From positions 47,974 to 111,973 of the IMG/VR virus record IMGVR_UViG_3300046787_000099: a DNA stretch of 64,000 bases. The stretch is one strand, 5' to 3'. Position 1 is the first letter of the stretch; each line of letters begins with the position of its first letter. Below are positions 2 to 64,000 of this stretch, in pieces. The notes under the pieces were generated by a model that was given only the letters and a program-made list of their open reading frames with translations, had not been told where the DNA came from and made no database searches. The DNA comes from a virus. The translations under genes were made by a program, and so were the position numbers.

Positions 2-3000
2 TGAAGGATTACCCAAATAAGCAGCTTGTGGATTGCTTGTATTGATTGTAAGCATTGTGTTATATAACAATGACTTATTCTCAAAGCGAGCAAGGATAGC
101 CTTGTTCTGAATACCATCAAGAGAAACTAAGTTACCAAAGTTCTGAGGGAAATCAAAGAATGCTAATGGTGTATAACTTAACCAGCTATTTACTTTGTTG
201 CTAGGATTAGTATCTTGTGCCTCTGAGTAAACAGCTCTGAATGGATAATATGTATTGCAGTTGTTCTCACTCCAATCAGCAGGAAGATGAGAGAAGAAGT
301 TCTCTGTATTCTGCTTAGAGTAAGACACATTGTAATAGTAAGTATTGTCTTGAGCAATAGGTACAAATGTTTGTTGTAACCATTGATCAGGAATACCAGA
401 GCTTACACGAGGATAGAAGTCTCCTTCTCTATTGTTAAATGATTGACGTAAGTCTAAGTTAATAGAACTCTCACAATAGAAATACGGAATACCATACGCA
501 AACATGTAGAACTTACCTGTGTACGATGCAGTGTTTGTACCCAAGCTGCTACCTCCCAACACTGTTGTTGTGGTAGTAGTTGTACCATTAAGAGGAGACT
601 CTGAAGGGCAATCAAAGTTATGAGCCTTGATTGATATAATGTTTCTTAATGTAGATATAGGTGCACCAGAATCAGGCTTATTGAAATCATACAACACTGA
701 TCTTGAAGAATGCCAGTATTGAGGATAAGCAATGTTACCTAATTGATCATACTCAATATCACTATCATCTGGAGCATTTACTCTATTATCAATAAAGAAC
801 GGAAGCTTAGTCTTGAATGCAAAACGAGAGATGAATGTATCACCACCAAATACAGTTTGGATTCCTGGTGTAGAATCAACATCTACTTGGAATCCTGTAT
901 CAATTGTAGTGTACGTATATATCTGTCCCCATTGATTAGGTAGTATATTCTTTAATGAACCATAGTAAGATACTACATTAATAGTTTCTAAGAACTCAGG
1001 AACACCACAGTTACCACTTTGTGATAAAGTGAATCTTGAGTTATCTTCAATCTGTCCATTAAGAGAAGGTGTGTCTTGAGCATAAGGAAGAGCAGTCTTT
1101 GATGCTGCTGTCTTTAAGTATACAGATGTTTCTCTTTGGAAGTTGTTTATATCATGATCATCACTAACAGACTGAACACCTGGAAGTAAGTATTGATAAA
1201 GATCAAGCTCACGTTGTTTGATACCTGCACCATTAGCAACATCAGCAGAGTAATCATACTGTGCTACAGAGTTGAATGAATATGCAAAGTTCTTTCTACT
1301 AATACCATTAATATAGATAGTTAGATAAGCTTGATACATAGTAAACATACCAGCCTGATTAAACGGACTAGTAATATTAGCAACCTTATAACTATCTAAT
1401 AATGCTTGATATTGAATCTCTTTAGTTAATAGTCTATATCTAGCATTGTTCTTCACTTCTACAAAGTGTGCACTACCTGCACCAAACATTGCATTCTCTA
1501 ACTTAAGAACAGATCCTAGTGAAGGTTGTCCAAAAGAAGTTTCAGGTGAGTTGAATATATATCTATACTTAGAAGCATCTGTAGAGAAACCATCTAAGTT
1601 TGCAGGTTGACAATAAGGATTTACATTACTAAATGCTACTGTATATCTAGTATCTCCACCAGTGAACTGAGGAGTAGTTGCAGAACAAATTATAACAGGC
1701 TCATCTGCAAGAACTGTAAGAGGAGTGTTAGTAGGATAAGTTAAAGCATCCTGATAGACAAATGTAGTAGATGACTGAGATGTTATTCTGTAGAACTTAG
1801 CATTGTATTGAGCTACAGGATTAGTAATTGTTGTAGTTCCAGTTAATATAACTGGTTGTGTTACAGAGCAAATATACTGCACACCTGCAGATAAATCTAA
1901 ACTTACTAATTCTCCTGTAGAAGAACTGTTGTATTGAATACTAGCAAATGCTGGTGTATCTAACTTCCAATAAATAGACTCACTGTTGTAAGCATTGTTT
2001 TCTTCAAGAAGGAATGGATCTCTGCTAACATCATTATAAGGATAGTTAGCATAGTAGTATGATGTATTCTCACGAGTGTATTTACCTACGTTACGTAGAA
2101 TACCTTTTGCTACAATAGATTTATTTGTAGATCTATTACCACGAACAATCTTGAATCCAGCAATCTCAGCCTTTTGATCTGCTGTCAAATCAGAAGCAGC
2201 AATCAAATCTAATACTTGTTGTGTATCAATTCTTACACCAAGAGGGAATACAGACTCAGGGTTCTGCATAACTGGTGAAATAGGTGTTGATACACTATAT
2301 GAAGGAGACTCATAAATAGGACTAACTAGAACATCAGGAAACTTGTGATGTCTAATTGGTTGACCAGCAAGATCTCCCCACACATTAGGATCACAAGGAT
2401 ATGTCTCTAATGATTCCCAATATGCAAACTCTCCATACTTATATGGTGTAGCACCATTGATACTAGCACCTGAACCATTCCCTGTTACAGATGCAGTGTT
2501 ATAAATCTTCCATGTAGGAGCAGATGTTCCTGTACCAATATAGTCAGGATTGCTATTAGGAATAGCTACTAAGTCTGAAGCAACCGATGCTCTACCAGGA
2601 ATGTGGAAACCATCTGTCTGCTTACCATTCCTCAATAAGAATACAATCTCAAATGCATACACCTCATCACGTAAATATCCACGTAAGTCTGTAGCATTTA
2701 ACTCATTTGCATAGTCTTGATTAGCAGGCATTTTGTACGTCTGCCACATCAAAGAAATATCGTTAGCAATCTTCTGATAACTTAATCGATCATCAGATGT
2801 TAAACCATCCCAAATAAGAATATCTTGTACAGATGTAATATCTTGAGCAACACTATAATAAGGTTGTTTCTCAAAGATGTCAGCAATAGTTAATCTGATT
2901 TGCTCTTGATTCTGTCCTGTATAAGTTATTTGTCTAGTTCTACCATCAATGAAGTAAGTACCAATTAGTTCTACAGATACTATAGCGTTGATGTTCTTGA

Positions 3001-3817
3001 TTACAGCAACATTGTAATACTCAAAGTATCCTGTTAAATCTAAGTTAGCAATATCTACAACAATAGACTTATTAACTGGGTAGTTAAAGTTTAATGTCTC
3101 AACGTTAGTGTTAGCAATAGGAAGAGGATTGGTAATAGAATAGTATGATGTATAACCAACACCATTAGCATTAGAATACTGAATAGCAAATTGGTATGTA
3201 CCAGATATAAGCTCACCACCATTAACTACCTCAGCTATATCTAATACAGGAATATCAAAGTTAGGTTGGATCTTTAACTTGTTACAATCAATCTCTCTTG
3301 TTGAAATAGTTTCACAAAGATTATCTCCAATAACTGTAACATAAGGAATGTTATCAATATCTAGATATCTACGAGGGTTTAATCCATCAGTCCAATAGAT
3401 TTCAGTTGTACAGTTTGATATCTTATGTACAGCCTTGTGAATAGGATTGTCAATGTTAAAGTTTAGACATGGAGAATTGATGTATGTATTATACACACAA
3501 TCATTGTTATCCATATATCCAATCTCAGAATCTCCAGTGTTAGGATTTACTAAGAAGAATATATGTTTGTTCTTCTCTTGAATAAAGTGTTCTCCAATAA
3601 GAACATAATCTTCAGGAAACTGTAAACACAGCACATTACCTGCCTCATTCTGATAGTTTACAGAATCGGAGTCAAAGTTTTCTATAGCCGCATTCAATGC
3701 ATATGTAAGCTTGCCTTTAGGTACTTGAGCAAGAGTTTGGTCCATGTTAAGACCACTCTGTGCAGCATTAAAGTTTTGCTTTACATTCCCTTGATTAGTT
3801 GTTTCTTCTCCAGCCAT
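2..3817 (-). CDS. Large tail muzzle/stabilization protein (crAss-like), partial, runs off window start
   Basis: Not in ORF track because no stop lies in the window. ATG at 3817 reads MAGEETTNQGNVKQNFNAAQSGLNMD...YWTDGLNPRRYLDID. The GLNxD and YWTDxxNP motifs and the position after the ring genes match the crAss stabilization protein. Contains an NGTTTTTTTV tract (Thr codons 563-583). Confidence 0.75.
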   Translation of the reverse strand, partial: MAGEETTNQGNVKQNFNAAQSGLNMDQTLAQVPKGKLTYALNAAIENFDSDSVNYQNEAGNVLCLQFPEDYVLIGEHFIQEKNKHIFFLVNPNTGDSEIGYMDNNDCVYNTYINSPCLNFNIDNPIHKAVHKISNCTTEIYWTDGLNPRRYLDIDNIPYVTVIGDNLCETISTREIDCNKLKIQPNFDIPVLDIAEVVNGGELISGTYQFAIQYSNANGVGYTSYYSITNPLPIANTNVETLNFNYPVNKSIVVDIANLDLTGYFEYYNVAVIKNINAIVSVELIGTYFIDGRTRQITYTGQNQEQIRLTIADIFEKQPYYSVAQDITSVQDILIWDGLTSDDRLSYQKIANDISLMWQTYKMPANQDYANELNATDLRGYLRDEVYAFEIVFLLRNGKQTDGFHIPGRASVASDLVAIPNSNPDYIGTGTSAPTWKIYNTASVTGNGSGASINGATPYKYGEFAYWESLETYPCDPNVWGDLAGQPIRHHKFPDVLVSPIYESPSYSVSTPISPVMQNPESVFPLGVRIDTQQVLDLIAASDLTADQKAEIAGFKIVRGNRSTNKSIVAKGILRNVGKYTRENTSYYYANYPYNDVSRDPFLLEENNAYNSESIYWKLDTPAFASIQYNSSSTGELVSLDLSAGVQYICSVTQPVILTGTTTITNPVAQYNAKFYRITSQSSTTFVYQDALTYPTNTPLTVLADEPVIICSATTPQFTGGDTRYTVAFSNVNPYCQPANLDGFSTDASKYRYIFNSPETSFGQPSLGSVLKLENAMFGAGSAHFVEVKNNARYRLLTKEIQYQALLDSYKVANITSPFNQAGMFTMYQAYLTIYINGISRKNFAYSFNSVAQYDYSADVANGAGIKQRELDLYQYLLPGVQSVSDDHDINNFQRETSVYLKTAASKTALPYAQDTPSLNGQIEDNSRFTLSQSGNCGVPEFLETINVVSYYGSLKNILPNQWGQIYTYTTIDTGFQVDVDSTPGIQTVFGGDTFISRFAFKTKLPFFIDNRVNAPDDSDIEYDQLGNIAYPQYWHSSRSVLYDFNKPDSGAPISTLRNIISIKAHNFDCPSESPLNGTTTTTTTVLGGSSLGTNTASYTGKFYMFAYGIPYFYCESSINLDLRQSFNNREGDFYPRVSSGIPDQWLQQTFVPIAQDNTYYYNVSYSKQNTENFFSHLPADWSENNCNTYYPFRAVYSEAQDTNPSNKVNSWLSYTPLAFFDFPQNFGNLVSLDGIQNKAILARFENKSLLYNTMLTINTSNPQAAYLGNPS

Positions 3818-7363: not shown

Positions 7364-8020
7364 TTAAACTATCGTAATCTTTACAGTTTGATAGAATCCT
7401 GGAGCAACACCAGCACTACTCATAACCATTTGGAAGCTAGAGAATGTGAAGTTTGGTGTACCAGGAGTGATAGTTTGAAGGACAGTTGTACCATCATAAG
7501 CAATTCTCTCAATCTTCTGAATAGTTTTACCAGCACCAGAAACAATTGTAGATCCTCCTAATTGATACGATAATGTATTAACTAAATCTAGATTGTATGA
7601 TGTTGTGAAACTTCCATATCCACCTTGAGAATTCAACACTACTGTCGCATCACCTGAAGGAGTTACTTGGAATGCATAGTTATAATGAATTTCTGCAACT
7701 GTAGTTGTGGTTGTAGTTGTAGGAGTTGCTGTTGTAGTAGTACTAGTTGTTGTACTTGTACTTGTACTAGTTGTAGATGTTGTAGTTGTAGTTGATGTAA
7801 TTACATTCAAATCTACATATGTCTGACATGTTCCAGGAGAGGATACACGAATAGTTGTTGTTCCATCAGGAACTACTGTACTAATATATCCTGCAACTAA
7901 AGAGGCTTTAGATACTCCCGTAGCAAATGCAGTAGTGTAACCATCTGTATTTGAATACAAGTTAAATGTAGGACCAGTGTCCGCTCCTGCTAAAGTTAAT
8001 GTTATTGATACTGTTATCAT
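7364..8020 (-). CDS. Putative virion accessory/fibre protein with central Thr/Ser-rich linker
   Basis: 218 aa; beta-rich domains flank TTSTTTTTSTTSTSTSTTTSTTTTATPTTTTTTT. Confidence 0.55.
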   Translation of the reverse strand: MITVSITLTLAGADTGPTFNLYSNTDGYTTAFATGVSKASLVAGYISTVVPDGTTTIRVSSPGTCQTYVDLNVITSTTTTTSTTSTSTSTTTSTTTTATPTTTTTTTVAEIHYNYAFQVTPSGDATVVLNSQGGYGSFTTSYNLDLVNTLSYQLGGSTIVSGAGKTIQKIERIAYDGTTVLQTITPGTPNFTFSSFQMVMSSAGVAPGFYQTVKITIV

Positions 8021-8031
8021 TTGGTTTAATA

Positions 8032-8418
8032 TTAACTAGTTGTGGTAGTAGTAGTTGTTGTTGGTGTTACAGTAGTTGTTGTTGTTGTCGTTGAACAACC
8101 ATTTACTAATGCACAGAATCTAGCTTTCAATACAGGATCATTAGAAATAGCAGTTAGTATCTGATCAGCTTGATTATCTGGATCAAGGGTATTGTCAATC
8201 TTTTGAATAACAACATTTAGTATATCAGCATAGTTTACTCCTGTGTAAGGTAAGTTAGGTCCATTATAGTAGATTAAATCTGTTTTAATTGGATATCCTA
8301 AGAACCTGTCACTCAAGCAACCTGCTGGATACAATGTATATACATTAGGACCATTACATGGCATTCCTGGTAAACAAGACATATTGTTAAAATTTAAACT
8401 GATGTGATAACTTGCCAA
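8032..8418 (-). CDS. Putative virion protein, Cys-rich N-terminus and poly-Thr C-terminal tail
   Basis: Probable true start MSCLPGMPC; ends CSTTTTTTTVTPTTTTTTTTS. Confidence 0.5.
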   Translation of the reverse strand: MASYHISLNFNNMSCLPGMPCNGPNVYTLYPAGCLSDRFLGYPIKTDLIYYNGPNLPYTGVNYADILNVVIQKIDNTLDPDNQADQILTAISNDPVLKARFCALVNGCSTTTTTTTVTPTTTTTTTTS

Positions 8419-10107: not shown

Positions 10108-11253
10108 TTAAGGGATCAACGTTGTTGTTGTTGAAGTAGAAGGCCAAGTAGTAGTTGTAGTACTTGTTGTAGAAGTAATTGGACCACTTTCATCAGATAC
10201 TGTTCCTAAAGCTGCTTCTAAGATATCTTGGATATCTAATGCTAAGTTTTGAGGAGTAGCGATGATTACAGTTGAATCTTCTTTGATATAGTCACCCCAC
10301 TGATAAGCAGATTTGTCATAATCATTGAACTTGATGTAATACGTATCATAAGTAGTACCATCAGTTACCCAAGATTCAAAGTTCTCATTGTACCCAACCA
10401 TACGGTATAAGTGCTTTAAGTAACCAGCTTGGTAGCTATAGAAGTTTTTCTCTAATTGCTTGATCTCATCAGATGTACCAGAAACATAAGAAGAACGTTG
10501 AGTTACCTCAGCAGTAGCAACCATGTTACAAGAATCTGCAACGATGAAGTCAGCAGTTGTAGCAGGACCAGCATACACGAAAGTACGGAACCACATACGG
10601 TCATACTCCCAAGGGAATGCAGCAACATCACAAGGTTGACCATACTTAGTTAATGGCTTACCAGTGATACGTAAGATTGCGTTTTGATTGTTACCAATAC
10701 GTTGGAATTGGTAGAAATCAGAGAAAGTGATGTTGTCAGGGTTGTTACCTGGAGCTTGCTCATTAAACTTAATGATAAATTGATCAATCAAGTTTGGAAC
10801 ATCAACATCAGCACAAGGATCTCCACCACAAGCTAAACACTCACCTTTAACAGTCACTGAACGAGTGAAACCGTTGAAGTATAATGTGTTTAAGTAAGAA
10901 GAGAACGCACGTAATGTAATAGTTACATCAGTACCAGGAGTCACTGTAAAGTCAGTAACATCAGTTACTTGGTTAGCAGCTACTGGATTTCCAGTTACTT
11001 TGTACCACTCAGTTACGTTAGAACCGTTAGAAGCAATCTTGTCAGAACGCTTAGATCCTTGTAAGTAAGTGTTTGTACGACCTTGAGCAACATAGAAGTA
11101 AGGACGAGCAGTAATGTTACTATCTGTTGCTACAGTGTAATCACTACGGAAGATACCAAACTTGCCTGCTGTCAAATTTTGTGTAGAACCAGTGCTAGGT
11201 AATGTGTTGCCTACTGGAACTACAAACAGGGTGGTTAATGAGAAATCAGCCAT
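10108..11253 (-). CDS. Auxiliary/minor capsid (decoration) protein with Thr-rich C-terminal tail
   Basis: 381 aa, highly expressed codon style, downstream of the MCP as in crAss-like phages; ends TSTTSTTTTTWPSTSTTTTLIP. Confidence 0.6.
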   Translation of the reverse strand: MADFSLTTLFVVPVGNTLPSTGSTQNLTAGKFGIFRSDYTVATDSNITARPYFYVAQGRTNTYLQGSKRSDKIASNGSNVTEWYKVTGNPVAANQVTDVTDFTVTPGTDVTITLRAFSSYLNTLYFNGFTRSVTVKGECLACGGDPCADVDVPNLIDQFIIKFNEQAPGNNPDNITFSDFYQFQRIGNNQNAILRITGKPLTKYGQPCDVAAFPWEYDRMWFRTFVYAGPATTADFIVADSCNMVATAEVTQRSSYVSGTSDEIKQLEKNFYSYQAGYLKHLYRMVGYNENFESWVTDGTTYDTYYIKFNDYDKSAYQWGDYIKEDSTVIIATPQNLALDIQDILEAALGTVSDESGPITSTTSTTTTTWPSTSTTTTLIP

Positions 11254-12010: not shown

Positions 12011-12975
12011 ACAGCGGCTAGTTTTTTCGTTTTAAGTTTCTGCTCTAAGATCAGTAAATCATCTTGGTGATCTTCATCAATCAAGAACTTAACTAATTCT
12101 TCCTCATCTACTGCAACTTCGAATTCACCTTGATAAACTTTACCATTAGGTTTGATTCTATAAATAGAATGAGTAATTGCTTGTTTTACTAAATCTTTTA
12201 CATGAAGTAGGTTCTCTTGCATATCTGCAAATCGACCAAACACTTCGATTGTTGAAAGACCTTGATACTTACCATCCTTGAACTCAGTCTGCTTTAAGAT
12301 GTTGTCCACTAGGTTATATACTACTTGGTCTTTAGTTTCTTCTGATACAGGTAAGCCTAGTAAACGAGCAACTTTACGTTTCTTCTCAGGAGTCATTGAA
12401 TCAAACTTGCCAATAGCTTTGTTGATCAATTGTTTCTTCTTGAAGATAATTGCACTTTCAATCTCATCATCTACTACATAGAACTGTGTATCTGCTGGAT
12501 ATTCACCACGCTCCCAAGCTTGATAGCTAGAAGCAATTGTTGGATGAACTCGTAACCAAGCAAAAGCTAACTCTTGCATTGGATTAGTAAAGTCAAAGTA
12601 GTTATCACCATCTAGCAACTTAACTGCTTGTACGTGTAACATATCATCATTTCCTTGAGACAAACCATAATTCCAGAACTTAGAACGAGGACCTAAATCC
12701 ACATCACCTAACGCAGATTCTAATCTAGCACGTAAATTAGTTACACGTTCGATCTCAAGTTCTCTTTCTGTTTGATCACCAATACGCTGAATGTATGCAG
12801 CATTTGGATTTAATCCTGTACGATACTGACCATCAAGCTCCTTGTAAGGATACTTAAACACTCCTGTACCAGGAATACGTGTCAAACCTTTTTGTGCAAG
12901 ACCACCTTGCATTGTTTGCATTTGAGAGTTACTATACTCTTTCTTAATAGTAGAGATTTTTCCTATCTTACCCAT
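12007..12975 (-). CDS. Conserved protein following the MCP, function unknown
   Basis: 322 aa ORF; LRVHPTIASS motif; has the AACTACATATG leader. Confidence 0.55.
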   Translation of the reverse strand: MGKIGKISTIKKEYSNSQMQTMQGGLAQKGLTRIPGTGVFKYPYKELDGQYRTGLNPNAAYIQRIGDQTERELEIERVTNLRARLESALGDVDLGPRSKFWNYGLSQGNDDMLHVQAVKLLDGDNYFDFTNPMQELAFAWLRVHPTIASSYQAWERGEYPADTQFYVVDDEIESAIIFKKKQLINKAIGKFDSMTPEKKRKVARLLGLPVSEETKDQVVYNLVDNILKQTEFKDGKYQGLSTIEVFGRFADMQENLLHVKDLVKQAITHSIYRIKPNGKVYQGEFEVAVDEEELVKFLIDEDHQDDLLILEQKLKTKKLAAV

Positions 12976-13070
12976 ATGTAGTTTAAATTTAATTTGGTTT
13001 GCAGAGTGCTATCCATCGAAGGAATAGCGACCAGGGACACCCCAATCCAAGCACTCTGTATTCAAGAAAT

Positions 13071-14744: not shown

Positions 14745-15992
14745 TTATGCAAACCAAGATGAAGGACTAGTACCACCTTTAGATTTTACTGAGCTCTTGG
14801 ATGCTTGTCTAGCAACTTCACCAAATAACTCATTTGACTTCTTAGAGATTCCTGACTTCTGAATGGTTGATAATGTAGGATCTTTTTCAAGGATCTTCAA
14901 TAGAAGACCAACCTTCACCTTTAACGCATGGTTCTCAGGACGCTTTAAGTCAAGAATGGTACGATCAAAATCTGTTAATGTTTCTCCAGATGGTGTCTTC
15001 CACTTCTCAGCCAAAAGAAAATCTTGTAGTTCTGTAGCTAGTTTAGGGTTAAGAGGGATGCCATCAAACTCCTTGCTTTTAATCTTCTCTTGCAATACAG
15101 AATTAACATTTTGTTGATACTGTTGCTTGATTGCAGCTTGTTGTTGTAATTGAGCAGCTCTATCCTGTTCTAATTTCTGAAGCTTTGTAGCTTCTTTCTT
15201 TATTAACACTTTATGATGTTTAGTAGCAACGTTTTCTAAATCACCATAGTTCTTCAGTCTTTCAACCTCAGAGGTTATATCTTCAGGATCAAATCCTTGA
15301 TCTTCTAAAGCTTGTTTAATCACTGCTATCTGGTTTGATTCTTGAGATAAGTCCATCTCAGAGAAGTTCTCAATAGCATTATATGTGCTGAAATAGTCTT
15401 TAGGATTAACCCCATTAACAAAGATAGATTGGAAAGCATTTTGGTAATCTTCACCAAACTGTCCAATGAAGTTGTTTACAACATCAATAGCACCTTTCTT
15501 CTTCTCTGCTTCGAAACGTTCTAAGAACTCTTCTGGTGTAGAGATGGCAATATCTTCTTCATCTTCATCCTTAGTGAATACACCAAGTTTGAACAAGTCA
15601 TTAGATAAAGCAGCAAATTGAGTTGCAGCAGGAGCTTCTTCCTCATCATCATCTGTTGCATCAGCTTTCGCAGCAGCAGCAACTGGAGCATCGTCCTCAT
15701 CCTCCTCTGTATCATCGTCATATAAGAAGTCAGTGATAGATTTCTTATCATCTTCTTTCTTATCATCTGCAGGAGCATCATTCTCAGTTGAAGCAGCTTG
15801 TGCTTTCTTCTTAGATGGTGCTGGAGCAGCAGGCTCAGGATCTGGAGTATTGATATCTTGAATATCATCAGGGTTCACTGTAGATGTGTCAGGGCCTAAT
15901 AAGTCACTTAGTAACTCTTGACTGCCCATTCCTTCCATAGTACTCTGAATACTGAAGTTCCCAAAATCTGGGGTTTCTAAATTATCAGCCAT
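14745..15992 (-). CDS. Putative capsid scaffolding protein
   Basis: Highly acidic low-complexity N-half and coiled-coil C-half, between portal and MCP. Confidence 0.65.
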   Translation of the reverse strand: MADNLETPDFGNFSIQSTMEGMGSQELLSDLLGPDTSTVNPDDIQDINTPDPEPAAPAPSKKKAQAASTENDAPADDKKEDDKKSITDFLYDDDTEEDEDDAPVAAAAKADATDDDEEEAPAATQFAALSNDLFKLGVFTKDEDEEDIAISTPEEFLERFEAEKKKGAIDVVNNFIGQFGEDYQNAFQSIFVNGVNPKDYFSTYNAIENFSEMDLSQESNQIAVIKQALEDQGFDPEDITSEVERLKNYGDLENVATKHHKVLIKKEATKLQKLEQDRAAQLQQQAAIKQQYQQNVNSVLQEKIKSKEFDGIPLNPKLATELQDFLLAEKWKTPSGETLTDFDRTILDLKRPENHALKVKVGLLLKILEKDPTLSTIQKSGISKKSNELFGEVARQASKSSVKSKGGTSPSSWFA

Positions 15993-16133
15993 ATGTAGTT
16001 AAACTTTTTGAATTGGTTTTCGATATAAAAATATGTTGTATTAAATTAATAACAAATAGATTAGAGCTTATAATGCTGATTATTGTTGATAATATAGCAT
16101 TAATGAATTTTACTCTAACCTATTTGATTAGAA

Positions 16134-56426: not shown

Positions 56427-57176
56427 ATGGAATACATCACATGCCATATAGGAGGTAGACTTGGTAACAACTTGTTTATGATTGCTAATGCTTATGCAAG
56501 AGCACTAGATGAGAATAAACGTTTTGTTGTTTACAAAGACTATCTCACATATGGCAGTGATGACTATCCTGCTAACATCTTTAGAAAGATTGATCTAGTA
56601 GAAGAACTAGACAGGTCACAGCAGGCATATGTAGGATACTTTCAGAGTGAGTCATACTTTGATAAGTATAGTGAGAACATCAAGTCTCTATTCAGTTATC
56701 CTCTTGAGTTTGAACAAAGAATACGTACAGAGCTACCATTCATATTTGATGGTGGTGTAACAGTAGTCAATGTTCGTAGAGGTGACTATCTACATTCCCC
56801 CAACTATCATCCCGTAGTAACTCCAGAATATCTTTACAAAGCAAACGAGTGGATTCCCAACACCACACATTATCTAATTGCTAGTGATGATATTCCTTGG
56901 TGTAAGGAGAACTTACAGTTCCCTAACGCAACGTATCTAGAAGGATACAACAGCTATGAGCAGTTATGGATATTATCCATGTGCCAGAACTTTATCATAT
57001 CCAACTCATCATTCTCTTGGTGGGCTGCATATCTCTCAAGACATCCTAACAAAATTGTTGTAGCACCTGAAACATGGTTTGGTCCAGAGTATCCACATGA
57101 TTGGGATTCTATGTATTGTAAAGATTGGATCATTGTACCAACCTATTTTGAACAAGGCTTAATTAAACCAAAATGA
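56427..57176 (+). CDS. GT11 alpha-1,2-fucosyltransferase-like glycosyltransferase
   Basis: GGRLGNNLF, GYFQSESYF, VRRGDY, SDDIPWC, IISNSSFSWW. Confidence 0.9.
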   Translation: MEYITCHIGGRLGNNLFMIANAYARALDENKRFVVYKDYLTYGSDDYPANIFRKIDLVEELDRSQQAYVGYFQSESYFDKYSENIKSLFSYPLEFEQRIRTELPFIFDGGVTVVNVRRGDYLHSPNYHPVVTPEYLYKANEWIPNTTHYLIASDDIPWCKENLQFPNATYLEGYNSYEQLWILSMCQNFIISNSSFSWWAAYLSRHPNKIVVAPETWFGPEYPHDWDSMYCKDWIIVPTYFEQGLIKPK

Positions 57177-57868
57177 TATCAGTATTAACTATTACCTACA
57201 AGAGGCATCACCTTCTTGAGGAGGCTATCGAATCTTTCTTAAGACAAGATTGCAAAGACTGTGAGATGGTTGTTGTGAATGACAACCCAGAAGTAGATTA
57301 TATCTATGAACACGAGAGAGTGAAGATCATTAACTGCAAAGAAAGATTCCCATCCATAGCATCTAAGCTAGAGTGGGGATACAAGCAGTGCAAGCATGAC
57401 TACATCTATCGTCTGGATGATGATGATTTGTTAGCTTCATGGGCTCTTGAGAATGTCAAAGCAGATATATTAGCTAATCCAGGATATGAGATCTACAGAA
57501 GCAGAGGAATGTATTTCTTTGTTAACAATGAGTTTCAGAAAGAGGATAGCAATATCAACAATGGTAATGTGTATACTAAAGCTTACCTAGACAGGATCAA
57601 GTTTCCTGATAAGAGTGGAGATGAAGATATGTACATCACGTTCAGAAATGATGCTAGTATCTATGAATCTAAGTTAAAGCACACCATGTTGTACAGATGG
57701 GGCATGAACACCCTACATATATCAGGCATGGGTATCCAACCTAATGAGGTAGTGTTAGCAAAGGCTGATGAAATGTTAGATAACACTAGAGGAGAGATGA
57801 AACTCAATCCTCACTTTGATAATGACTACTATAAACAGTTAGTCAAACCTTATGCATGGCATAGATAG
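57173..57868 (+). CDS. GT2 glycosyltransferase
   Basis: ISVLTITYKR..LLEEAIESFLRQ..VVVND..RLDDDD. Confidence 0.85.
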   Translation: MISVLTITYKRHHLLEEAIESFLRQDCKDCEMVVVNDNPEVDYIYEHERVKIINCKERFPSIASKLEWGYKQCKHDYIYRLDDDDLLASWALENVKADILANPGYEIYRSRGMYFFVNNEFQKEDSNINNGNVYTKAYLDRIKFPDKSGDEDMYITFRNDASIYESKLKHTMLYRWGMNTLHISGMGIQPNEVVLAKADEMLDNTRGEMKLNPHFDNDYYKQLVKPYAWHR

Positions 57869-58104: not shown

Positions 58105-58461
58105 TTACTTGCAGCCATACTTACATTTCTTTACAGACTTACCCATCTTAGCTTTACCTTTAGTAGCACCTGCGATTTTATCAGCATATGTAGCTTTATC
58201 ATAAGGAGGAGCAAGTTTAGCAAATGATGTACCATCTTGAGCTTTCTTTACTGCACCACCCATTTTCTTCTTAGGTTTAGGCATTGCACCAGAAGGACCT
58301 GAACCAGGACCATCGCCAAATTTAAGGTTTGTTTTCTTCTCTAACTCAAGATCAGCACCTTTAAGTTTGTTATAAGCACCAATTTCACCACCCATTGGTT
58401 TACCTTTTGCTACGAGCTTAGCTTTACCGCCCATTTGCATCTTTTTCTTAATCATTGCCAT
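58105..58461 (-). CDS. Lys/Gly/Met-rich basic protein
   Basis: 118 aa with KKMQMGG, KKKMGG, KAQDG, KAKMG. Confidence 0.7.
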   Translation of the reverse strand: MAMIKKKMQMGGKAKLVAKGKPMGGEIGAYNKLKGADLELEKKTNLKFGDGPGSGPSGAMPKPKKKMGGAVKKAQDGTSFAKLAPPYDKATYADKIAGATKGKAKMGKSVKKCKYGCK

Positions 58462-58463
58462 TG

Positions 58464-58652
58464 TTATTTCTTTTTAGACATTTTAGTTGCACCTAATTGC
58501 TTGTCTTTCTTCAAGACAGCTTTACCCTTAGCACCTGCTAATGTTTTCTCTTGAACCTTAGTCCAAGCACCTTTAGGATCTATAGGTCCTACACGCTTAT
58601 TGGAAGCTTTAAGTCCTGTAAGACTACCTCCTGACTTCTTTGCTGTTGCCAT
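58464..58652 (-). CDS. Lys-rich basic protein
   Basis: 62 aa, MATAKKSGG...MSKKK. Confidence 0.7.
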   Translation of the reverse strand: MATAKKSGGSLTGLKASNKRVGPIDPKGAWTKVQEKTLAGAKGKAVLKKDKQLGATKMSKKK

Positions 58653-58656
58653 TATA

Positions 58657-58809
58657 TTATTTCTTTTTAGTTTGAGCTTTAATCTTCTTTTCCTGCTTTA
58701 ACATTTGAGCAGTTGGTTTCTTACCAGATCCCTTGTTAGCACGGATGTTATCCCACAATCCGCGTTGCGATGTAGAACCATCAGCACGTTTAATCATTTG
58801 CTTTGCCAT
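58657..58809 (-). CDS. 50-aa basic protein
   Basis: MAKQMIKRADGSTSQRGLWDNIRANKGSGKKPTAQMLKQEKKIKAQTKKK (read manually). Confidence 0.65.
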   Translation of the reverse strand: MAKQMIKRADGSTSQRGLWDNIRANKGSGKKPTAQMLKQEKKIKAQTKKK

Positions 58810-58821
58810 AATATTATTAGT

Positions 58822-59094
58822 TTAACAATTCCACTTTCTTAATGCTAATGTCTTACGTGTTGGTTCACCATTAGGTTTCTTTGCAGGTCCTTTAACTCCT
58901 GACATTCTAGCACAAAAAGACTTACGTCTGTTAGCAGCTTTACTTCCTTTCTTCAACTTAGAAGGAGGAGTAGTAACAGCCATCTTTAACTTACTACCAG
59001 GATTCTCACGTCTATAGGACGCTACACCTTTTCTATTCAGTCCACCTTTAGGATCTTTTCCCTCGGACCTTTGCCATGCTGCGCTTTTTGCCAT
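58822..59094 (-). CDS. Basic protein (DUF6321-like)
   Basis: AWQRSEGKDPKGGLN...RRKSFCARM...LRKWNC. Confidence 0.7.
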   Translation of the reverse strand: MAKSAAWQRSEGKDPKGGLNRKGVASYRRENPGSKLKMAVTTPPSKLKKGSKAANRRKSFCARMSGVKGPAKKPNGEPTRKTLALRKWNC

Positions 59095-59455
59095 AATCAG
59101 GATTGTCTTTGTGCCACTTCTTTACAGATGCAACACCTTGTTTAACAGTTTTTGCTCTAGACTTGGCAGTGAGATTAATCTTATCCCACTTACCAGCAGG
59201 AATACCAGCTGTATGATCTACAACTATATCCCCTTTATCACCTATCCCTCTATCAGTAGTTTTCTTAAATACCTTGTGTGTTTGACCACCCACTTTAACA
59301 ATCTTGCCACCAGTCTTTAATGATGTACCATCCTTCTTAATCAGATGTCCATTAGGAACAGGAGTGACATTTCCCCCTTGTTTCAGAACACCTTTACCCA
59401 CATAGGCAGTAGCCTTCTGTGGATTGTATGGACCAGGTTTCTTGATAGATGCCAT
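59048..59455 (-). CDS. Basic protein
   Basis: 135 aa; LKQGG, LKTGG, WDKINLT. Confidence 0.65.
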   Translation of the reverse strand: MASIKKPGPYNPQKATAYVGKGVLKQGGNVTPVPNGHLIKKDGTSLKTGGKIVKVGGQTHKVFKKTTDRGIGDKGDIVVDHTAGIPAGKWDKINLTAKSRAKTVKQGVASVKKWHKDNPDYGKKRSMAKVRGKRS

Positions 59456-59457
59456 GA

Positions 59458-59613
59458 TTACTTACCCTTACGCTTTGCAGCCATTGCTTTAAACGTCTTA
59501 GCTAAAGCCTTACGTTTAGGTGTACATGTAGCTTTGGTCATAGGAGTGCAATATCCTTTGTGTTTAGGATTAACTGCCTTCTGGATCCAGTTCTTGTCTT
59601 TAGCCTTTGCCAT
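59458..59613 (-). CDS. 51-aa basic protein
   Basis: MAKAKDKNWIQKAVNPKHKGYCTPMTKATCTPKRKALAKTFKAMAAKRKGK (read manually). Confidence 0.65.
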   Translation of the reverse strand: MAKAKDKNWIQKAVNPKHKGYCTPMTKATCTPKRKALAKTFKAMAAKRKGK

Positions 59614-59800: not shown

Positions 59801-59804
59801 ATTG

Positions 59805-59875
59805 CACACCCTAAAGGATTCGAACCTCTACTAACGGTTTTGGAGACCGTTGTGCTACCGTTACACTAAAGATGC
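59805..59875 (-). tRNA. tRNA-Trp (CCA)
   Basis: GCATCTT-TA-GTGT AACGGTA GCAC-A-ACGGT CTCCAAA ACCGT-TAGT-AGAGG TTCGAAT CCTTT-AGGGTGT-G; 3' CCA not encoded. Confidence 0.9.
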
Positions 59876-60304: not shown

Positions 60305-60589
60305 TTAATCTAATGTTATTTCAAATGCAATCACAGCATTTGTTTTTATACTCTTGGACATGTTCAGCTTTATCTGGAACATGTTGTGAAACTTGAATAG
60401 TTCTTCTATCAATGAGTTAGTGTACTTAGGAAGAGATGGTGCTATTCTAAAGCTGTATGCTCTAGGATGTTTCACTACCTCCATTGCACAGAGTTCATCT
60501 ATTGAATCGATAATGCCTTCTAGATGAGCAAAATACACCTCATCATTGTGCTTCATTATCTTTGGAAAGAATTTCTTCTTTATCTGCAT
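60305..60589 (-). CDS. Hypothetical protein
   Basis: 94 aa ORF. Confidence 0.6.
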   Translation of the reverse strand: MQIKKKFFPKIMKHNDEVYFAHLEGIIDSIDELCAMEVVKHPRAYSFRIAPSLPKYTNSLIEELFKFHNMFQIKLNMSKSIKTNAVIAFEITLD

Positions 60590-61008
60590 TACGACAGAGT
60601 TAACAGGTATTTAGTTGTAGCTGCTTTTCCAGACAATGCTTGAGCAACATTCTCAATATCAGGCATGTTGTTAGAAGCACCATAGTTCTGTAACTGCTTA
60701 GAGAATGATAATAACTCAGCTACAACTTGATCAGATACACCTGGAGCATAGTCTTTCAACTGTCCTGGATTACCAATCTTAGCACGAGTGCCTGAGTAAC
60801 CCATAATCTTTTCCATGATTTCATCCTTGAAATCAATTACAGCTTCATATAATTTACCAAGACTTTTATGCTCTGCATAAGAACGTGTAGCCCAATGTAG
60901 ATTGTGTAGCTGCAGTTCAAAGTATGTTAGCTTTGTAGCAATAGCATCAGGAGAAAGATCCCCTGATGCACTGCTTAACATTTCTTGTGGAAATAATGAT
61001 TTAGCCAT
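60589..61008 (-). CDS. Ferritin/Dps-like four-helix protein (DUF5856-like)
   Basis: LHNLHWATRSYAEHKSLGKLYE...DEIMEKIMG. Confidence 0.7.
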   Translation of the reverse strand: MAKSLFPQEMLSSASGDLSPDAIATKLTYFELQLHNLHWATRSYAEHKSLGKLYEAVIDFKDEIMEKIMGYSGTRAKIGNPGQLKDYAPGVSDQVVAELLSFSKQLQNYGASNNMPDIENVAQALSGKAATTKYLLTLS

Positions 61009-61508
61009 TACGCTGATGTTGTTGTAGTAGTCGTTGTAGGACTAGCTGTTGTCGTAGTTGTTGTGGTAGGTGCAGCTGTTGTAGTTGTCGTAGTTGTAGG
61101 AGCTACATATGCTGTCACTGTAAATGTTGGAGCTGAGTTAGGGCAAATAGCCTGAACTTGAGATCCTGTCATTACAAGTGTAAGGTTTGTACCACCTGTT
61201 GTAGAGAACGCACCTAATAAAGGATATGTTGTATTCAACTTGCTAACTAAGTCTGCTACTGATGAAGAGTTTTGTCCTGAAATTAATGTTTCAGTTAATG
61301 TTCCTCCGCAGAATAACTTAACTTGGAAGTTAGTAATAGTAGTAGATACTGTAGTAGTAAGTGTAGCACCATTGCAACACTCGTACCCTTGAATTTCTTG
61401 CCAGTTACCAACTTTAGGTTTTTGTTTTCTCAGAATAAGGCTGCCTGCAACAACCCTTCCGCTACCATCGTAGCGAACAAATGCTTTAAGATTTCTCTGA
61501 ATTGCCAT
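61008..61508 (-). CDS. Putative virion protein with mucin-like poly-Thr tail
   Basis: LKAFVRYDGSGRVVAGSLILR N-terminus; tail APTTTTTTTAAPTTTTTTTASPTTTTTTTSA. Confidence 0.6.
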   Translation of the reverse strand: MAIQRNLKAFVRYDGSGRVVAGSLILRKQKPKVGNWQEIQGYECCNGATLTTTVSTTITNFQVKLFCGGTLTETLISGQNSSSVADLVSKLNTTYPLLGAFSTTGGTNLTLVMTGSQVQAICPNSAPTFTVTAYVAPTTTTTTTAAPTTTTTTTASPTTTTTTTSA

Positions 61509-61513
61509 TTTGT

Positions 61514-62530
61514 TTAATAATTAAGGTTATATTTTTCTTTTAACTTTAAAAGCTCTTTAACGTAATAGTGAGTGCATTTCTGTTGAGCAGCCTCACTATT
61601 CAAGACTACTTGCATGTGTGGATCATTGAATGGATCTTTACCTGTGTGATATATCCCCTTATAGAATGCAGGATAATCACCCATGTTTGTATCTACAATA
61701 CCAGCATTATGAAGGATTCCTAATCTGGCAATCTTTTCAATAGGATCTGAAGACCAAGCAAACTCCAACTCAGGAATATTCTTCGTTTCAGCACCTCTAT
61801 ACCAAAGAGCCCATAGAACCGCCCACATGTCTGCACACCAACTCTGGAAACCACTACTCTCATCTTTGAAATATAAACGGTTTATACTCAATAAGTATGA
61901 TCGAATAGACAAACAGTCTCTGAGAACTTTCTCCCAGAACGCACCATCAATGTTTTTCAACAGATACTGTGCACCACCTGAGTGGTCATTGTTTGCTTCA
62001 GCAATTTCTCTATTTATTCCGCACATCTCTGTAGCTTGTGCAAGAACATCAATCTTTTCATATCCGTGCAACCTATCAGGAAGCACATCTTTTATCTTAC
62101 TATCGAAGTATGAGGCATTGATATAGCTGTTAGTGTCTGATAGATAGTTTACATCATCATCTAAGAACTGATCAACATTGAATCTCTCTGTGAAGATTAC
62201 ATCAGAGTCACAGTAGAACACTGCATTCTGTTTCATCTCTGGATGTTCGTAGAAGTATTTCATCAGAACGTAAGGACGAAGAACAGGAATGTATGTTCCT
62301 AACTTTGCACTTATACCATCTACATCCTTGTAGAAGACAAACTCTGCCTCTGGATATAGATCAATGACCTGTTGCCATTTTTCATTCTTCTCTCTATAGT
62401 TTGGAATGAATATTAGGACAATAGCTTTGTCTGAATGTCCTATCTTCTTTAAGCTCTCTATCCATAAGTGTACCTGCCATGTATAGTAGGTATCATCTGG
62501 CTGAGCACAGATAAATTTGAGATCCCTCAT
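61514..62530 (-). CDS. GT-A glycosyltransferase resembling plant protein O-glycosyltransferases (GT95 HPAT / GT96 SERGT)
   Basis: YYTWQVHLWIESL, YIPVLRPY, YCDSD (DxD), GGAQY, WCADMWA, ILHN. Confidence 0.6.
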   Translation of the reverse strand: MRDLKFICAQPDDTYYTWQVHLWIESLKKIGHSDKAIVLIFIPNYREKNEKWQQVIDLYPEAEFVFYKDVDGISAKLGTYIPVLRPYVLMKYFYEHPEMKQNAVFYCDSDVIFTERFNVDQFLDDDVNYLSDTNSYINASYFDSKIKDVLPDRLHGYEKIDVLAQATEMCGINREIAEANNDHSGGAQYLLKNIDGAFWEKVLRDCLSIRSYLLSINRLYFKDESSGFQSWCADMWAVLWALWYRGAETKNIPELEFAWSSDPIEKIARLGILHNAGIVDTNMGDYPAFYKGIYHTGKDPFNDPHMQVVLNSEAAQQKCTHYYVKELLKLKEKYNLNY

Positions 62531-62559
62531 ATGTAGTTAATTGTTGGTTTGTTTAATTC

Positions 62560-62964
62560 TTAGTCTGAGAATACATTAAGTCCAAATGTTCCACTAGGAC
62601 AAAGTATGCTCTTAACTACTAGCGGTGCACTTAATTGTAATGTTGTGCTATCAAAAGCAGCAAATGTTCCATACACATTTGTTGATGAATTAGAATTAAA
62701 TAGAGTAACTAATTCATTTATATCATTTACAGTATCACCTGTATACACATAGTTACCAACAGCGCTATCATCACAAGTAAAGTTCATACTAGTATTACTT
62801 ATAGGAAATGATAATGATTGACTGTATATAACTACTGTTGGTTCAGATGGAGTGGGTAGTGTAACATTACCTGCCACTTGGGTTAACTTTTCTAATTGTT
62901 TAGAAATATTCCAAAGCAAGTATGCTTTCTGACTCCATCCTATTTGTTTACTTGGTATTGCCAT
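62560..62964 (-). CDS. Putative virion protein sharing a domain with 61008-61508
   Basis: MAIPSKQIGWSQ..LLWNISKQLEKL N-terminus; C..LV..(L/F)N..G.F..L..CP domain. Confidence 0.55.
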   Translation of the reverse strand: MAIPSKQIGWSQKAYLLWNISKQLEKLTQVAGNVTLPTPSEPTVVIYSQSLSFPISNTSMNFTCDDSAVGNYVYTGDTVNDINELVTLFNSNSSTNVYGTFAAFDSTTLQLSAPLVVKSILCPSGTFGLNVFSD

Positions 62965-62976
62965 TGTCTTATTATC

Positions 62977-63999
62977 TTAAACGTTACCCATTTGTAATGA
63001 ACCTTGTACTCCACTGAATGGATTAGTTGCTGAATATGTTGCTCCAGTATTTGTAGCATTATGTGCATTACCACTGTTATCAGTTAATTGTGCATTTAAT
63101 GTTGTTCCTTGGAAGATCAATAGTCTAGTAGCAGCTAAATCAGTAAGAGGAGATGTTGGAACTGTAAATCCAGCTGGATCATAAACATAAGACTCTGTCC
63201 ATCTGAAGTTACTAATCAATCCGTTAAATCCTGAACCAGGCTCATTACCATATCCAATTGTTACTGGTAAGTTTTGGCTAGAGATAGCTCCATCATATGT
63301 AGTAGTTGCTACTTGAACACCATCAATTAAAATATAAAGAGAACTTCCAACTCCTGTTACACATATGTGATACCATTCTCCTAATGTAGGAACAAACTCA
63401 CCACTTAGTAAATTTGAATTATCTCCCCAGAAGTATATCGAACCTCCTTCAAGTGAAATAGCATTAGCAGCTGGATAAACACCAAGACTATATGGACGTG
63501 GGAAGTTACTATTATCGTTCATGTTCACAAACATCTCAATAGTAAAGTCTCCTACAATATCAAAGTCTGAACTAGCAGCAATACCTACATAACCTGGAGG
63601 AGCTTGGTTTACGTTAACTGTCCACCCTTTACCTTGTAAGTTTGTCTTAGCTGTAGCACCATAATCTGTAGGAATAGCATTTGTACCACCAGATAAATCT
63701 ACATAACCATTTTCTACACCACTACCATCTAACCATTGTAATGTGTTATTTACAGCTTCTTCTGTAAGAGCAGCATCACTGATACTAACATCATTAAGAT
63801 ATGCTTCTGGTAATGTAACTGATGTAATGCCAGTGTTGCCACCAAGATCAAAACCTGTAAGATTATTGAATGATGATGCTGATATATCTATATCTCCTGA
63901 TATACCACACTGATCCATATCAAAAAATGTCAGACTAGTAAGTGATGAAAGATCAGGGATACCAGCTGAGAAATTACTATCATCAAGACGTAATTGCTC
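62977..63999 (-). CDS. LRR plus LamG/ConA-like lectin-domain protein, partial (start beyond window)
   Basis: Frame open to the window edge (EQLRLDDSNFSAGIPDLSSLTSLTFFDM, LRR-like); GDFTIEMFV, WYHICV, FNGLISNFR (LamG). Confidence 0.7.
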   Translation of the reverse strand, partial: EQLRLDDSNFSAGIPDLSSLTSLTFFDMDQCGISGDIDISASSFNNLTGFDLGGNTGITSVTLPEAYLNDVSISDAALTEEAVNNTLQWLDGSGVENGYVDLSGGTNAIPTDYGATAKTNLQGKGWTVNVNQAPPGYVGIAASSDFDIVGDFTIEMFVNMNDNSNFPRPYSLGVYPAANAISLEGGSIYFWGDNSNLLSGEFVPTLGEWYHICVTGVGSSLYILIDGVQVATTTYDGAISSQNLPVTIGYGNEPGSGFNGLISNFRWTESYVYDPAGFTVPTSPLTDLAATRLLIFQGTTLNAQLTDNSGNAHNATNTGATYSATNPFSGVQGSLQMGNV

Positions 64000-64000
64000 A

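Follow-up and report, generated by a model that had tools for sequence, protein, structure and literature searches.

A candidate self-glycosylation module in phages, pairing a GT-A glycosyltransferase with poly-threonine tags

The present study analyzes a window of 64,000 nucleotides (bases 47974-111973) of a complete virus record in IMG/VR, IMGVR_UViG_3300046787_000099 (111,973 bp with a 127-bp terminal repeat), and centers on a minus-strand gene at window positions 61514-62530 whose 338-residue product appears to be a glycosyltransferase (GT) and which lies beside genes encoding runs of threonine. We consider it likely that this enzyme, with a DxD motif on a GT-A fold, acts in the cytoplasm to O-glycosylate threonine hydroxyls in tracts of seven threonines following a proline (xP-T7) on particle and fiber-like proteins, enzyme and tract together forming a portable module. 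The patterns detected are a glycosyltransferase fold with a conserved catalytic motif, threonine runs that are over-represented and selected at the protein level, and co-location of enzyme and runs with coupled gain and loss across unrelated phages. The enzyme gene and the window's genes with T7 runs are listed here; positions are those of the window unless marked as genome positions.

61514-62530, minus strand: predicted soluble GT-A glycosyltransferase of 338 residues (phrog_4417; HPAT/GT8-like), assigned from motifs, alignment, model and Foldseek/VIA-align
61008-61508, minus strand: candidate acceptor of 166 residues, carrying a conserved A-type N-terminal head (46 residues), then a two-cysteine domain (about 85 residues) and a tail (61011-61106) made up of three xP-T7 repeats and predicted to be disordered
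2-3817, minus strand: 3' part of the gene for an 1811-residue virion structural protein (phrog_37948, E 3e-116), in which small C-terminal cysteine domains are joined by ten xP-T7 linkers
7364-8020, minus strand: 218-residue protein encoded in the structural block; a Thr/Ser-rich linker at its center is followed by ATP-T7
8032-8418, minus strand: 128-residue protein ending ...CSTTTTTTTVTPTTTTTTTTS
10108-11253, minus strand: 381-residue protein among virion structural family genes, three genes downstream of the major capsid protein gene, ending ...TSTTSTTTTTWPSTSTTTTLIP

Fold and family of the enzyme

The motifs that a first-pass annotation, made from the letters alone, had named for this gene are all present in its product, with YYTWQVHLWIESL at residues 15-27, YCDSD at 106-110 and WCADMWA at 231-237. 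In an alignment of 71 family members both aspartates of the DxD motif (D108-S-D110) are invariant, as are Y80, Q229, H274 and K291. An AlphaFold (AF2) model built from this alignment has a predicted local distance difference test score (pLDDT) of 97.5, forms one confident globular domain of 338 residues and opens with a beta strand at residues 4-11. Because of this early strand and the confidence of the model throughout, the enzyme is predicted to have neither a signal peptide nor a membrane anchor and, with no N-terminal hydrophobic segment, should therefore act in the cytoplasm.

Foldseek and VIA-align concur in assigning the model a GT-A fold, with 94 solved chains at Z >= 8 and GT-A enzymes at the top. 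The top solved neighbors (Z 12.8-14.0, root-mean-square deviation about 3.8-4.5 over 217-245 residues) are GT8-like and mostly retaining, namely glycogenin, LgtC, the UGGT catalytic domain, Skp1 AgtA, WbbM, GlyE and LARGE1, and the nearest solved folds fall in GT8, GT24 and GT77. Similarity at this level is structural: identity to neighbors of the glycogenin, UGGT and GlyE type is 8-13% with TM-scores of only about 0.45, single-sequence and profile searches of the enzyme against solved-structure sequences returned chance matches only, and Glyco_transf_8 (PF01501) matched neither the protein nor its 71 relatives in Pfam at E <= 1. Among predicted viral structures the good matches were only uncharacterized phage proteins (TM 0.80, and 0.71 for Orf49 of Lactobacillus phage LP65). 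The model, the Z-scores of its neighbors and the invariant D108 and D110 support a GT-A fold for the glycosyltransferase with a DxD motif that was proposed at first pass, and the enzyme is probably retaining. The outcome that the first-pass annotation had named as adverse, a best structural match to a DNA- or lipopolysaccharide-modifying enzyme, was not obtained; the top of the list is a mixture of protein-modifying GT8-like enzymes with others that modify lipo-oligosaccharide or O-antigen, and does not decide the acceptor.

The protein matches phrog_4417, a family annotated as of 'unknown function', at E 8e-55 (residues 4-330 on profile positions 1-291 of 293), and no Pfam family matched it (E <= 0.1 for PF23452). 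An exhaustive profile-free homologue search with the enzyme returned at least 767 clusters at 50% identity, and fusions to GT2, Gly_transf_sug, methyltransferase or radical-SAM/SPASM domains occur in the family. The enzyme had been described at first pass as GT95/96-like from a resemblance in motifs, and the GT95 part of that description is partly supported, by its relatives and fold and not by the protein's own sequence matches. The profile of the plant hydroxyproline arabinosyltransferases (HPAT, PF23452) matched neither the 338-residue protein at E <= 0.1 nor the genome, and direct searches with PF23452 and PF23741 gave no match in the genome or in five phage records; as they gave none in control genomes either, they are uninformative. 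HPAT is nevertheless the commonest Pfam match among the 71 relatives, three of which match it below the gathering score of 23.9 bits, the best (P0261) with 21.9 bits and E 1.3e-4 over profile positions 9-230 of 307. Of the 30 named clusters nearest to the enzyme by language model in the ESM Atlas, HPAT is carried by 22, including a bacterial cluster with HPAT in 58% of its members at a cosine of 0.96; the precomputed Pfam labels of a second homologue search contained no HPAT label. HPATs are described as GT8-related (PMC4908140), which fits the GT8-like fold of the enzyme. The relationship to plant HPATs appears to be real but remote and below threshold, and the enzyme is best called HPAT-like rather than a member of GT95.

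Threonine-tagged proteins of the genome

The first-pass annotation placed the enzyme gene directly upstream of a gene ending in three xPT7 repeats, and the gap to that gene (61008-61508) is indeed only 5 nucleotides. Its product ends ...YVAPTTTTTTTAAPTTTTTTTASPTTTTTTTSA, and the threonine tail is predicted to be disordered in a model of moderate confidence (pLDDT 65). Genome-wide, T7 runs occur in six proteins, five of them in the window, and one of the six, the 1811-residue protein, is a recognized virion structural protein. About 0.0002 such runs would be expected by chance in the 31.6k residues scanned, and the threonine codons over the runs are mixed (ACT 50, ACA 48, ACC 17, ACG 7), which together argue for selection at the protein level. 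The 381- and 1811-residue tagged proteins and the capsid protein matched no sequence among PDB chains, crAss001 virion chains included. The sixth T7-bearing protein is a minus-strand frame of about 120 residues at genome 15695-16054 (read stop to stop, ending ...PTTTTSTTTEEPSTTTTTTTVAPE); it comes after a minus-strand open reading frame (ORF) of 161 residues (genome 15192-15677) that lies 3' of a cluster of five GT genes described below.

Co-occurrence of enzyme and tags in related and unrelated phages

Eighty related loci were fetched from IMG/VR and the 70 that were non-identical were used for run counts. Within 1 kb of the GT gene lay 282 of the 305 coding-strand runs of six or more threonines, at a density of 1.39 per kb upstream and 2.83 per kb downstream, against at most 0.18 further out; a run was found within 600 nucleotides upstream in 49 of 62 testable loci and downstream in 53 of 68. 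Homopolymer runs of any other residue numbered at most 8 in the same loci. In a second clade (30-35% identity to its query), threonine runs occurred in 19 of 24 loci, with 53 runs of threonine, 2 of alanine and none of other residues.

The family is also present in 77 GenBank phage records (tblastn, E <= 1e-5), mostly from phages of Lactobacillus, Enterococcus, Staphylococcus and Lactococcus. Every GT-positive record examined has the gene in the structural block beside proteins with threonine tails, and threonine tracts lie by the GT gene in 10 of 10 GT-positive phages of Firmicutes and Bacteroidota hosts as opposed to 0 of 6 close GT-negative relatives. In phiFL1A, PLE3, R3.3, 1706 and bIL285 the homologue adjoins major capsid or tail proteins with T6-T10 C-termini. 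The capsid protein of PLE3 ends ...VPTTTTTTTSK and its tail protein ...ETTTTTTTSK, with a 125-residue protein of PT7 repeats immediately before the GT gene; in 1706 the capsid/protease ends in T9-HHD and the major structural protein in T10-HHD; and in phiFL1A T5-T7 runs close both gp45, which is capsid-like, and gp50, the major tail protein, the GT being the next gene. Threonine tracts likewise adjoin the GT gene in Planchet, PT94, ENFP1 and Chryseobacterium phage MA9V-3.

Three contrasts between close relatives show gain or loss of enzyme and tags together, with presence or absence of the GT gene confirmed by profile searches of whole records. PLE3 and iLp84, which have the gene, and CL2 and iLp1308, which do not, have capsid proteins 98% identical up to residue 337, after which the former continue ...VLVPTTTTTTTSK and the latter ...VLIPKP; their tail proteins differ only by a T7 tail, and conserved genes separate the capsid and tail loci. 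The second contrast, within one genus, sets R3.3 (gene and tags present) against Bassarid (both absent), and the third sets phiFL1A (both present) against Streptococcus phages 315.6 and Javan47 (both absent). In a scan of whole records, six consecutive threonine codons were found at 18 and 5 sites in two GT-positive records and at none in three GT-negative records. The functional tie between enzyme and poly-threonine tracts suggested at first pass, together with the co-occurrence predicted from it, is thus upheld in the 70 related loci by tight synteny, in the second clade, and in unrelated Firmicutes phages by the three contrasts.

A possible explanation of these patterns is hitch-hiking, in which the tracts are plain flexible stalks of a hypervariable fiber cassette and the GT gene merely sits in the same recombination hotspot. 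In the group to which this phage belongs, tracts do often join a conserved head to variable distal domains, and the cassette has clearly been shuffled. Such an explanation would not account for the siphophage tags, which are short C-terminal tails on major capsid and tail-tube proteins rather than linkers, nor for the observation that the tagged genes are several genes apart (the capsid and tail-tube genes lie 5 genes apart in PLE3 and 4 in R3.3), with intervening genes conserved between PLE3 and CL2, and yet both tails track the GT gene; we regard hitch-hiking as highly improbable. Only slightly less improbable is that the substrate of the enzyme is a glycan of the host envelope (teichoic acid, capsule or lipopolysaccharide), modified for superinfection exclusion or to aid release, the threonine tracts being unrelated linkers. 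This would be consistent with the presence of LgtC and WbbM among the closest folds, and activity of this kind is common among phage GT-A enzymes; however, the gene is found in the structural block by capsid and tail genes, in lytic and temperate phages and in phages of Gram-positive and Gram-negative hosts, the enzyme is soluble with no membrane segment, and coupled gain and loss of threonine tails at two separate genes would be left unexplained.

If the enzyme does act on the tags, it could extend or decorate a glycan first attached there by a host enzyme or another phage GT, and so be an elongating rather than a priming enzyme. GT8-like enzymes such as GlyE extend glycans on serine-rich repeat proteins after a separate primer, which counts for this possibility, as do the closeness of GlyE as a structural neighbor (Z 12.8) and the seven other GT genes of the genome. 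It is unlikely all the same, given that neither the GT2 nor the GT4 family is represented in PLE3, phiFL1A or 1706 and that PLE3 has no annotated GT, so that the enzyme is the sole recognizable phage GT in these phages; that tags appear and vanish with the enzyme gene alone; and that HPATs, to which relatives of the enzyme are likened, are priming enzymes (PMC4908140). Under O-glycosylation of the tags by the phage enzyme, which we prefer, the enzyme itself would transfer the first sugar to threonine, and the other seven GT genes of this genome may extend the glycan, extension and fucosylation by the GT2 and GT11 enzymes having been suggested at first pass.

Capsid genes in two of the GT-positive phages have unusual 3' ends. 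In Planchet (OX422066.1, L094:5740-5880) the capsid gene ends ...GCA GCC CCA AAA GCG TAG, in which C_CCA_AAA is a canonical -1 slippery heptamer, and the -1 frame continues ...PKSVEPTTTTSTTKVTTTTTSTSTTTTTTVMPTTTTTTVAEG just upstream of the GT gene; given the heptamer and the Thr-rich frame, a programmed frameshift would give some capsid subunits a Thr-rich tail of 45 residues, 39 of them beyond the normal stop. In bIL285 (AF323668.1, L096:5940-5990) a TAA closes the capsid ORF, and beyond it the frame reads on as NDKTTTTTTRHD to a further stop, matching the ...KTTTTTTTTTRHD tail of the tail protein Orf50; this could reflect readthrough of the stop codon, a nonsense mutation that arose recently, or an error in the sequencing.

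Proposed mechanism

The mechanism that we propose is that a soluble, DxD-bearing and metal-dependent GT-A enzyme would use a nucleotide sugar in the cytoplasm, with the threonine hydroxyls of disordered xP-Tn tags as acceptors. The tags would be placed as C-terminal tails or as interdomain stalks on particle and fiber-like proteins, and enzyme and tagged proteins would be made in the same late period; the start of the GT gene shares an exact 11-mer leader with two capsid-module genes (see below). Enzyme and tag would constitute a portable two-part module in which any protein acquiring a threonine tag becomes a substrate, and the outcome would be a mucin-like glycan brush on the heads, tails or fibers of the assembled particle; in this phage the modified proteins would accordingly be part of the virion. 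A broader version, to which we give about even chances, is that an HPAT-like enzyme recognizes bare poly-threonine so that any particle protein can be coated by way of a T7 tag, that some phages may tag only a fraction of capsid subunits by recoding, and that the arrangement is widespread in phages of Firmicutes and Bacteroidota, environmental crAss-like phages included, perhaps as a prokaryotic-virus counterpart of the plant extensin-type peptide O-glycosyltransferases or even a relative of their ancestor.

Several observations weigh against O-glycosylation of the tags. Because LgtC, WbbM, glycogenin, GlyE and others are tied as neighbors, the modeled fold does not decide between a protein and a lipid-linked glycan acceptor, LgtC (lipo-oligosaccharide) and WbbM (O-antigen) being equally close. 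No chemical evidence of a glycan was found for this or any other family member. The 166-residue neighbor, taken at first pass for a mucin-like virion protein, matched no known virion protein family in Pfam or PHROGs, the major capsid protein of this genome has no threonine tail, and Thr/Pro tracts also serve as plain flexible linkers. Synteny is inherited within the phage group, so the 70 related loci are not independent and amount to about one observation, the independent evidence consisting of the three contrasts and about nine lineages. No threonine run was seen in three of the second clade's 24 loci, and the tracts of ENFP1 are PTTV repeats with no long threonine runs.

Flanking genes and genome setting

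The genes and signals around the enzyme gene, and the two nearest other GT genes, are as follows.

62560-62964, minus strand: 134-residue protein that has a B-type N-terminal head (paralogue: genome 396-713) and whose C-terminal domain is a homologue of the one in the 61008-61508 product
62977-64000, minus strand: 3' part of the gene for a 408-residue adhesin-like protein with leucine-rich repeats (LRR) and a LamG (ConA-like lectin) domain, its 5' end lying across the 127-bp terminal repeat at the genome start
62528-62550, minus strand: leader ending AACTACATATG (start codon included), an exact 11-mer found also at two capsid-module gene starts
56427-57176, plus strand: GT11 (alpha-1,2-fucosyltransferase family) gene, Pfam E 3e-28
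57173-57868, plus strand: GT2 gene, Pfam E 3e-14

The proteins on either side of the enzyme have in common a C-terminal domain that contains two cysteines and is about 85 residues long. That they share one domain, as the first-pass annotation had stated, was recovered by profile-profile comparison (hhalign probability 72%, E 3e-5, 78 columns) and by a relative (L073) in which the downstream-type head is joined to the upstream-type domain, BLASTP between the two flanking proteins alone being not significant (E 2.6). The 62560-62964 product has no threonine tail here, and in most relatives the small upstream ORF ends in T7-T9. Two conserved N-terminal heads of about 35-46 residues, MxNxRDLKAFVRYDGSGRVVAGSLILRKNKPKVGNWQEIQAYECCN and MAIPSKQIGWSQKAxLLWxISKQLExLTxV, occur on the flanking genes of the 80 related loci (142 and 136 ORFs), followed by a threonine tail alone (micro-proteins of 45-80 residues), by a threonine stalk and variable distal domain, or by a domain with a threonine tail. 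With stalks and distal domains interchangeable behind them, the conserved heads resemble anchors to which fiber or decoration proteins could be attached in exchange for one another. A reading of the heads as leaders directing glycosylation of a threonine core, as in ribosomally synthesized and post-translationally modified peptides or glycocins, was set aside in view of the siphophage capsid and tail-tube tags, which lack that head.

The 11-mer AACTACATATG occurs on the minus strand at 62528-62538, 12973-12983 and 15990-16000, three sites where 0.06 would be expected, and the capsid-module genes with this leader start at 12975 and 15992; the 11-mer probably serves these genes as a common signal, for late translation or in a promoter-proximal role. 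On the 3' side of the Thr-tailed gene, and overlapping its stop by one base, is a gene for a DUF5856 protein (60589-61008, minus strand; phrog_858, annotated as a 'starvation-inducible transcriptional regulator', Dps-like). Six small basic proteins of 50-135 residues, very rich in Lys, Gly and Ala, are encoded in a row at 58105-59613 (minus strand), adjoined by a tRNA-Trp gene at 59804-59875 (minus strand); these proteins may bind DNA or be internal.

Portal, terminase and capsid proteins of the genome match phage families. Over about 88% of its length the terminase shows 25-30% identity to those of gut crAss-like phages, Azobacteroides phage ProJPt-Bp1 and Cellulophaga phages, and the capsid protein matches Flavobacterium FpV phages, for which reasons the label 'crAss-like' holds at a distance; the host is probably a member of Bacteroidota. 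The genome has eight GT genes in all, consisting of the HPAT-like gene, the GT11 and GT2 genes, whose first-pass identities agree with their Pfam matches, and a cluster of five outside the window (GT9, an 870-residue GT4-like protein, GT2, GT4 and GT9; plus strand, genome 8706-15002). Also outside the window are three genes whose products have signal-peptide-like N-termini and in one case a cohesin domain (genome 823-5243, upstream of the LRR/LamG gene), and an endolysin-like gene with PG_binding_1 and GH19 domains (genome 5947-6831).

Comparison with known systems

To our knowledge, mycobacteriophages are the only phages for which self-glycosylation of the particle has been demonstrated. What is new here, and computationally well supported, is a candidate for virion self-glycosylation in which the enzyme family appears to differ, the presumed acceptor tag is stereotyped and the host groups are new; literature searches, in which coverage was incomplete, found no paper on this enzyme family or on poly-threonine tags as phage glycosylation sites. 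If the proposal is true, it would constitute a second, unrelated and much more widespread system and would change the view of phage surfaces in dairy, enterococcal, staphylococcal and aquatic or crAss-like phages, with consequences for immunogenicity in phage therapy, adherence to mucus, the stability of particles and the recognition of hosts. The enzyme family, at least 767 sequence clusters now called 'hypothetical', would gain a function, and glyco-engineering a very simple handle in the form of a short threonine tag and one soluble enzyme. The proposal is testable in cultured phages, namely the L. casei BL23 prophage PLE3 and lactococcal phages 1706 and bIL285.

Among viruses with other hosts, the chlorovirus PBCV-1 encodes in A64R a cytoplasmic GT-A enzyme that modifies its own major capsid protein and has Z 11.1 to the enzyme model. 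A64R acts on atypical N-linked sites, and it differs further in belonging to another family, in coming from a eukaryotic virus and in having no tag-like acceptor tract. The closest protein-acting folds are glycogenin, the UGGT catalytic domain (GT24) and GlyE of the pneumococcal serine-rich repeat pathway (Z 12.8-14.0, root-mean-square deviation 3.8-4.0, 220-243 residues), which have in common with the phage enzyme a DxD motif and a conserved histidine further along the chain, but differ from it in the low identity given above and in that the phage enzyme has no Glyco_transf_8 match. The plant and algal enzymes HPAT1-3 (GT95, PF23452) and SGT1 (GT96) are likened to it in that they put the first sugar onto a side-chain hydroxyl in Pro-rich repetitive proteins, and a GT8-related catalytic domain appears to be common to HPATs and the phage enzyme. 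HPATs, however, are held in the Golgi lumen by a type II membrane anchor and transfer L-arabinofuranose from UDP-Araf to hydroxyproline, whereas the phage enzyme is predicted to be soluble, with a strand starting at residue 4; the acceptors of HPAT and SGT1 are hydroxyproline or serine, and that of the phage enzyme is presumed to be threonine.

The nearest likeness is to the mycobacteriophages Che8, Corndog and Myrna, which, according to the accounts of Freeman et al. (2023, Cell Host Microbe) given in PMC12619734 and PMC12363180, glycosylate the C-termini of capsid and tail-tube proteins with their own GTs, a modification that in the same accounts lowers antibody binding. No Mycobacterium phage was among the 77 tblastn-positive records (E <= 1e-5), and by tblastn the enzyme family may therefore be unrelated to mycobacteriophage GTs such as Che8 gp110 or Corndog gp38. 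In those accounts phage GTs act in the cytoplasm and glycans on C-terminal extensions shield the particle surface, and we propose likewise for the present system, which is known from sequence alone. The layout of a phage GT with C-terminal tails on capsid and tail-tube subunits is seen in PLE3, R3.3, phiFL1A and 1706, whereas in the present genome the tags are on other structural-block and fiber-like proteins. The system described here differs from that of mycobacteriophages in having a stereotyped poly-threonine tag as presumed acceptor and in occurring in phages of Firmicutes and Bacteroidota.

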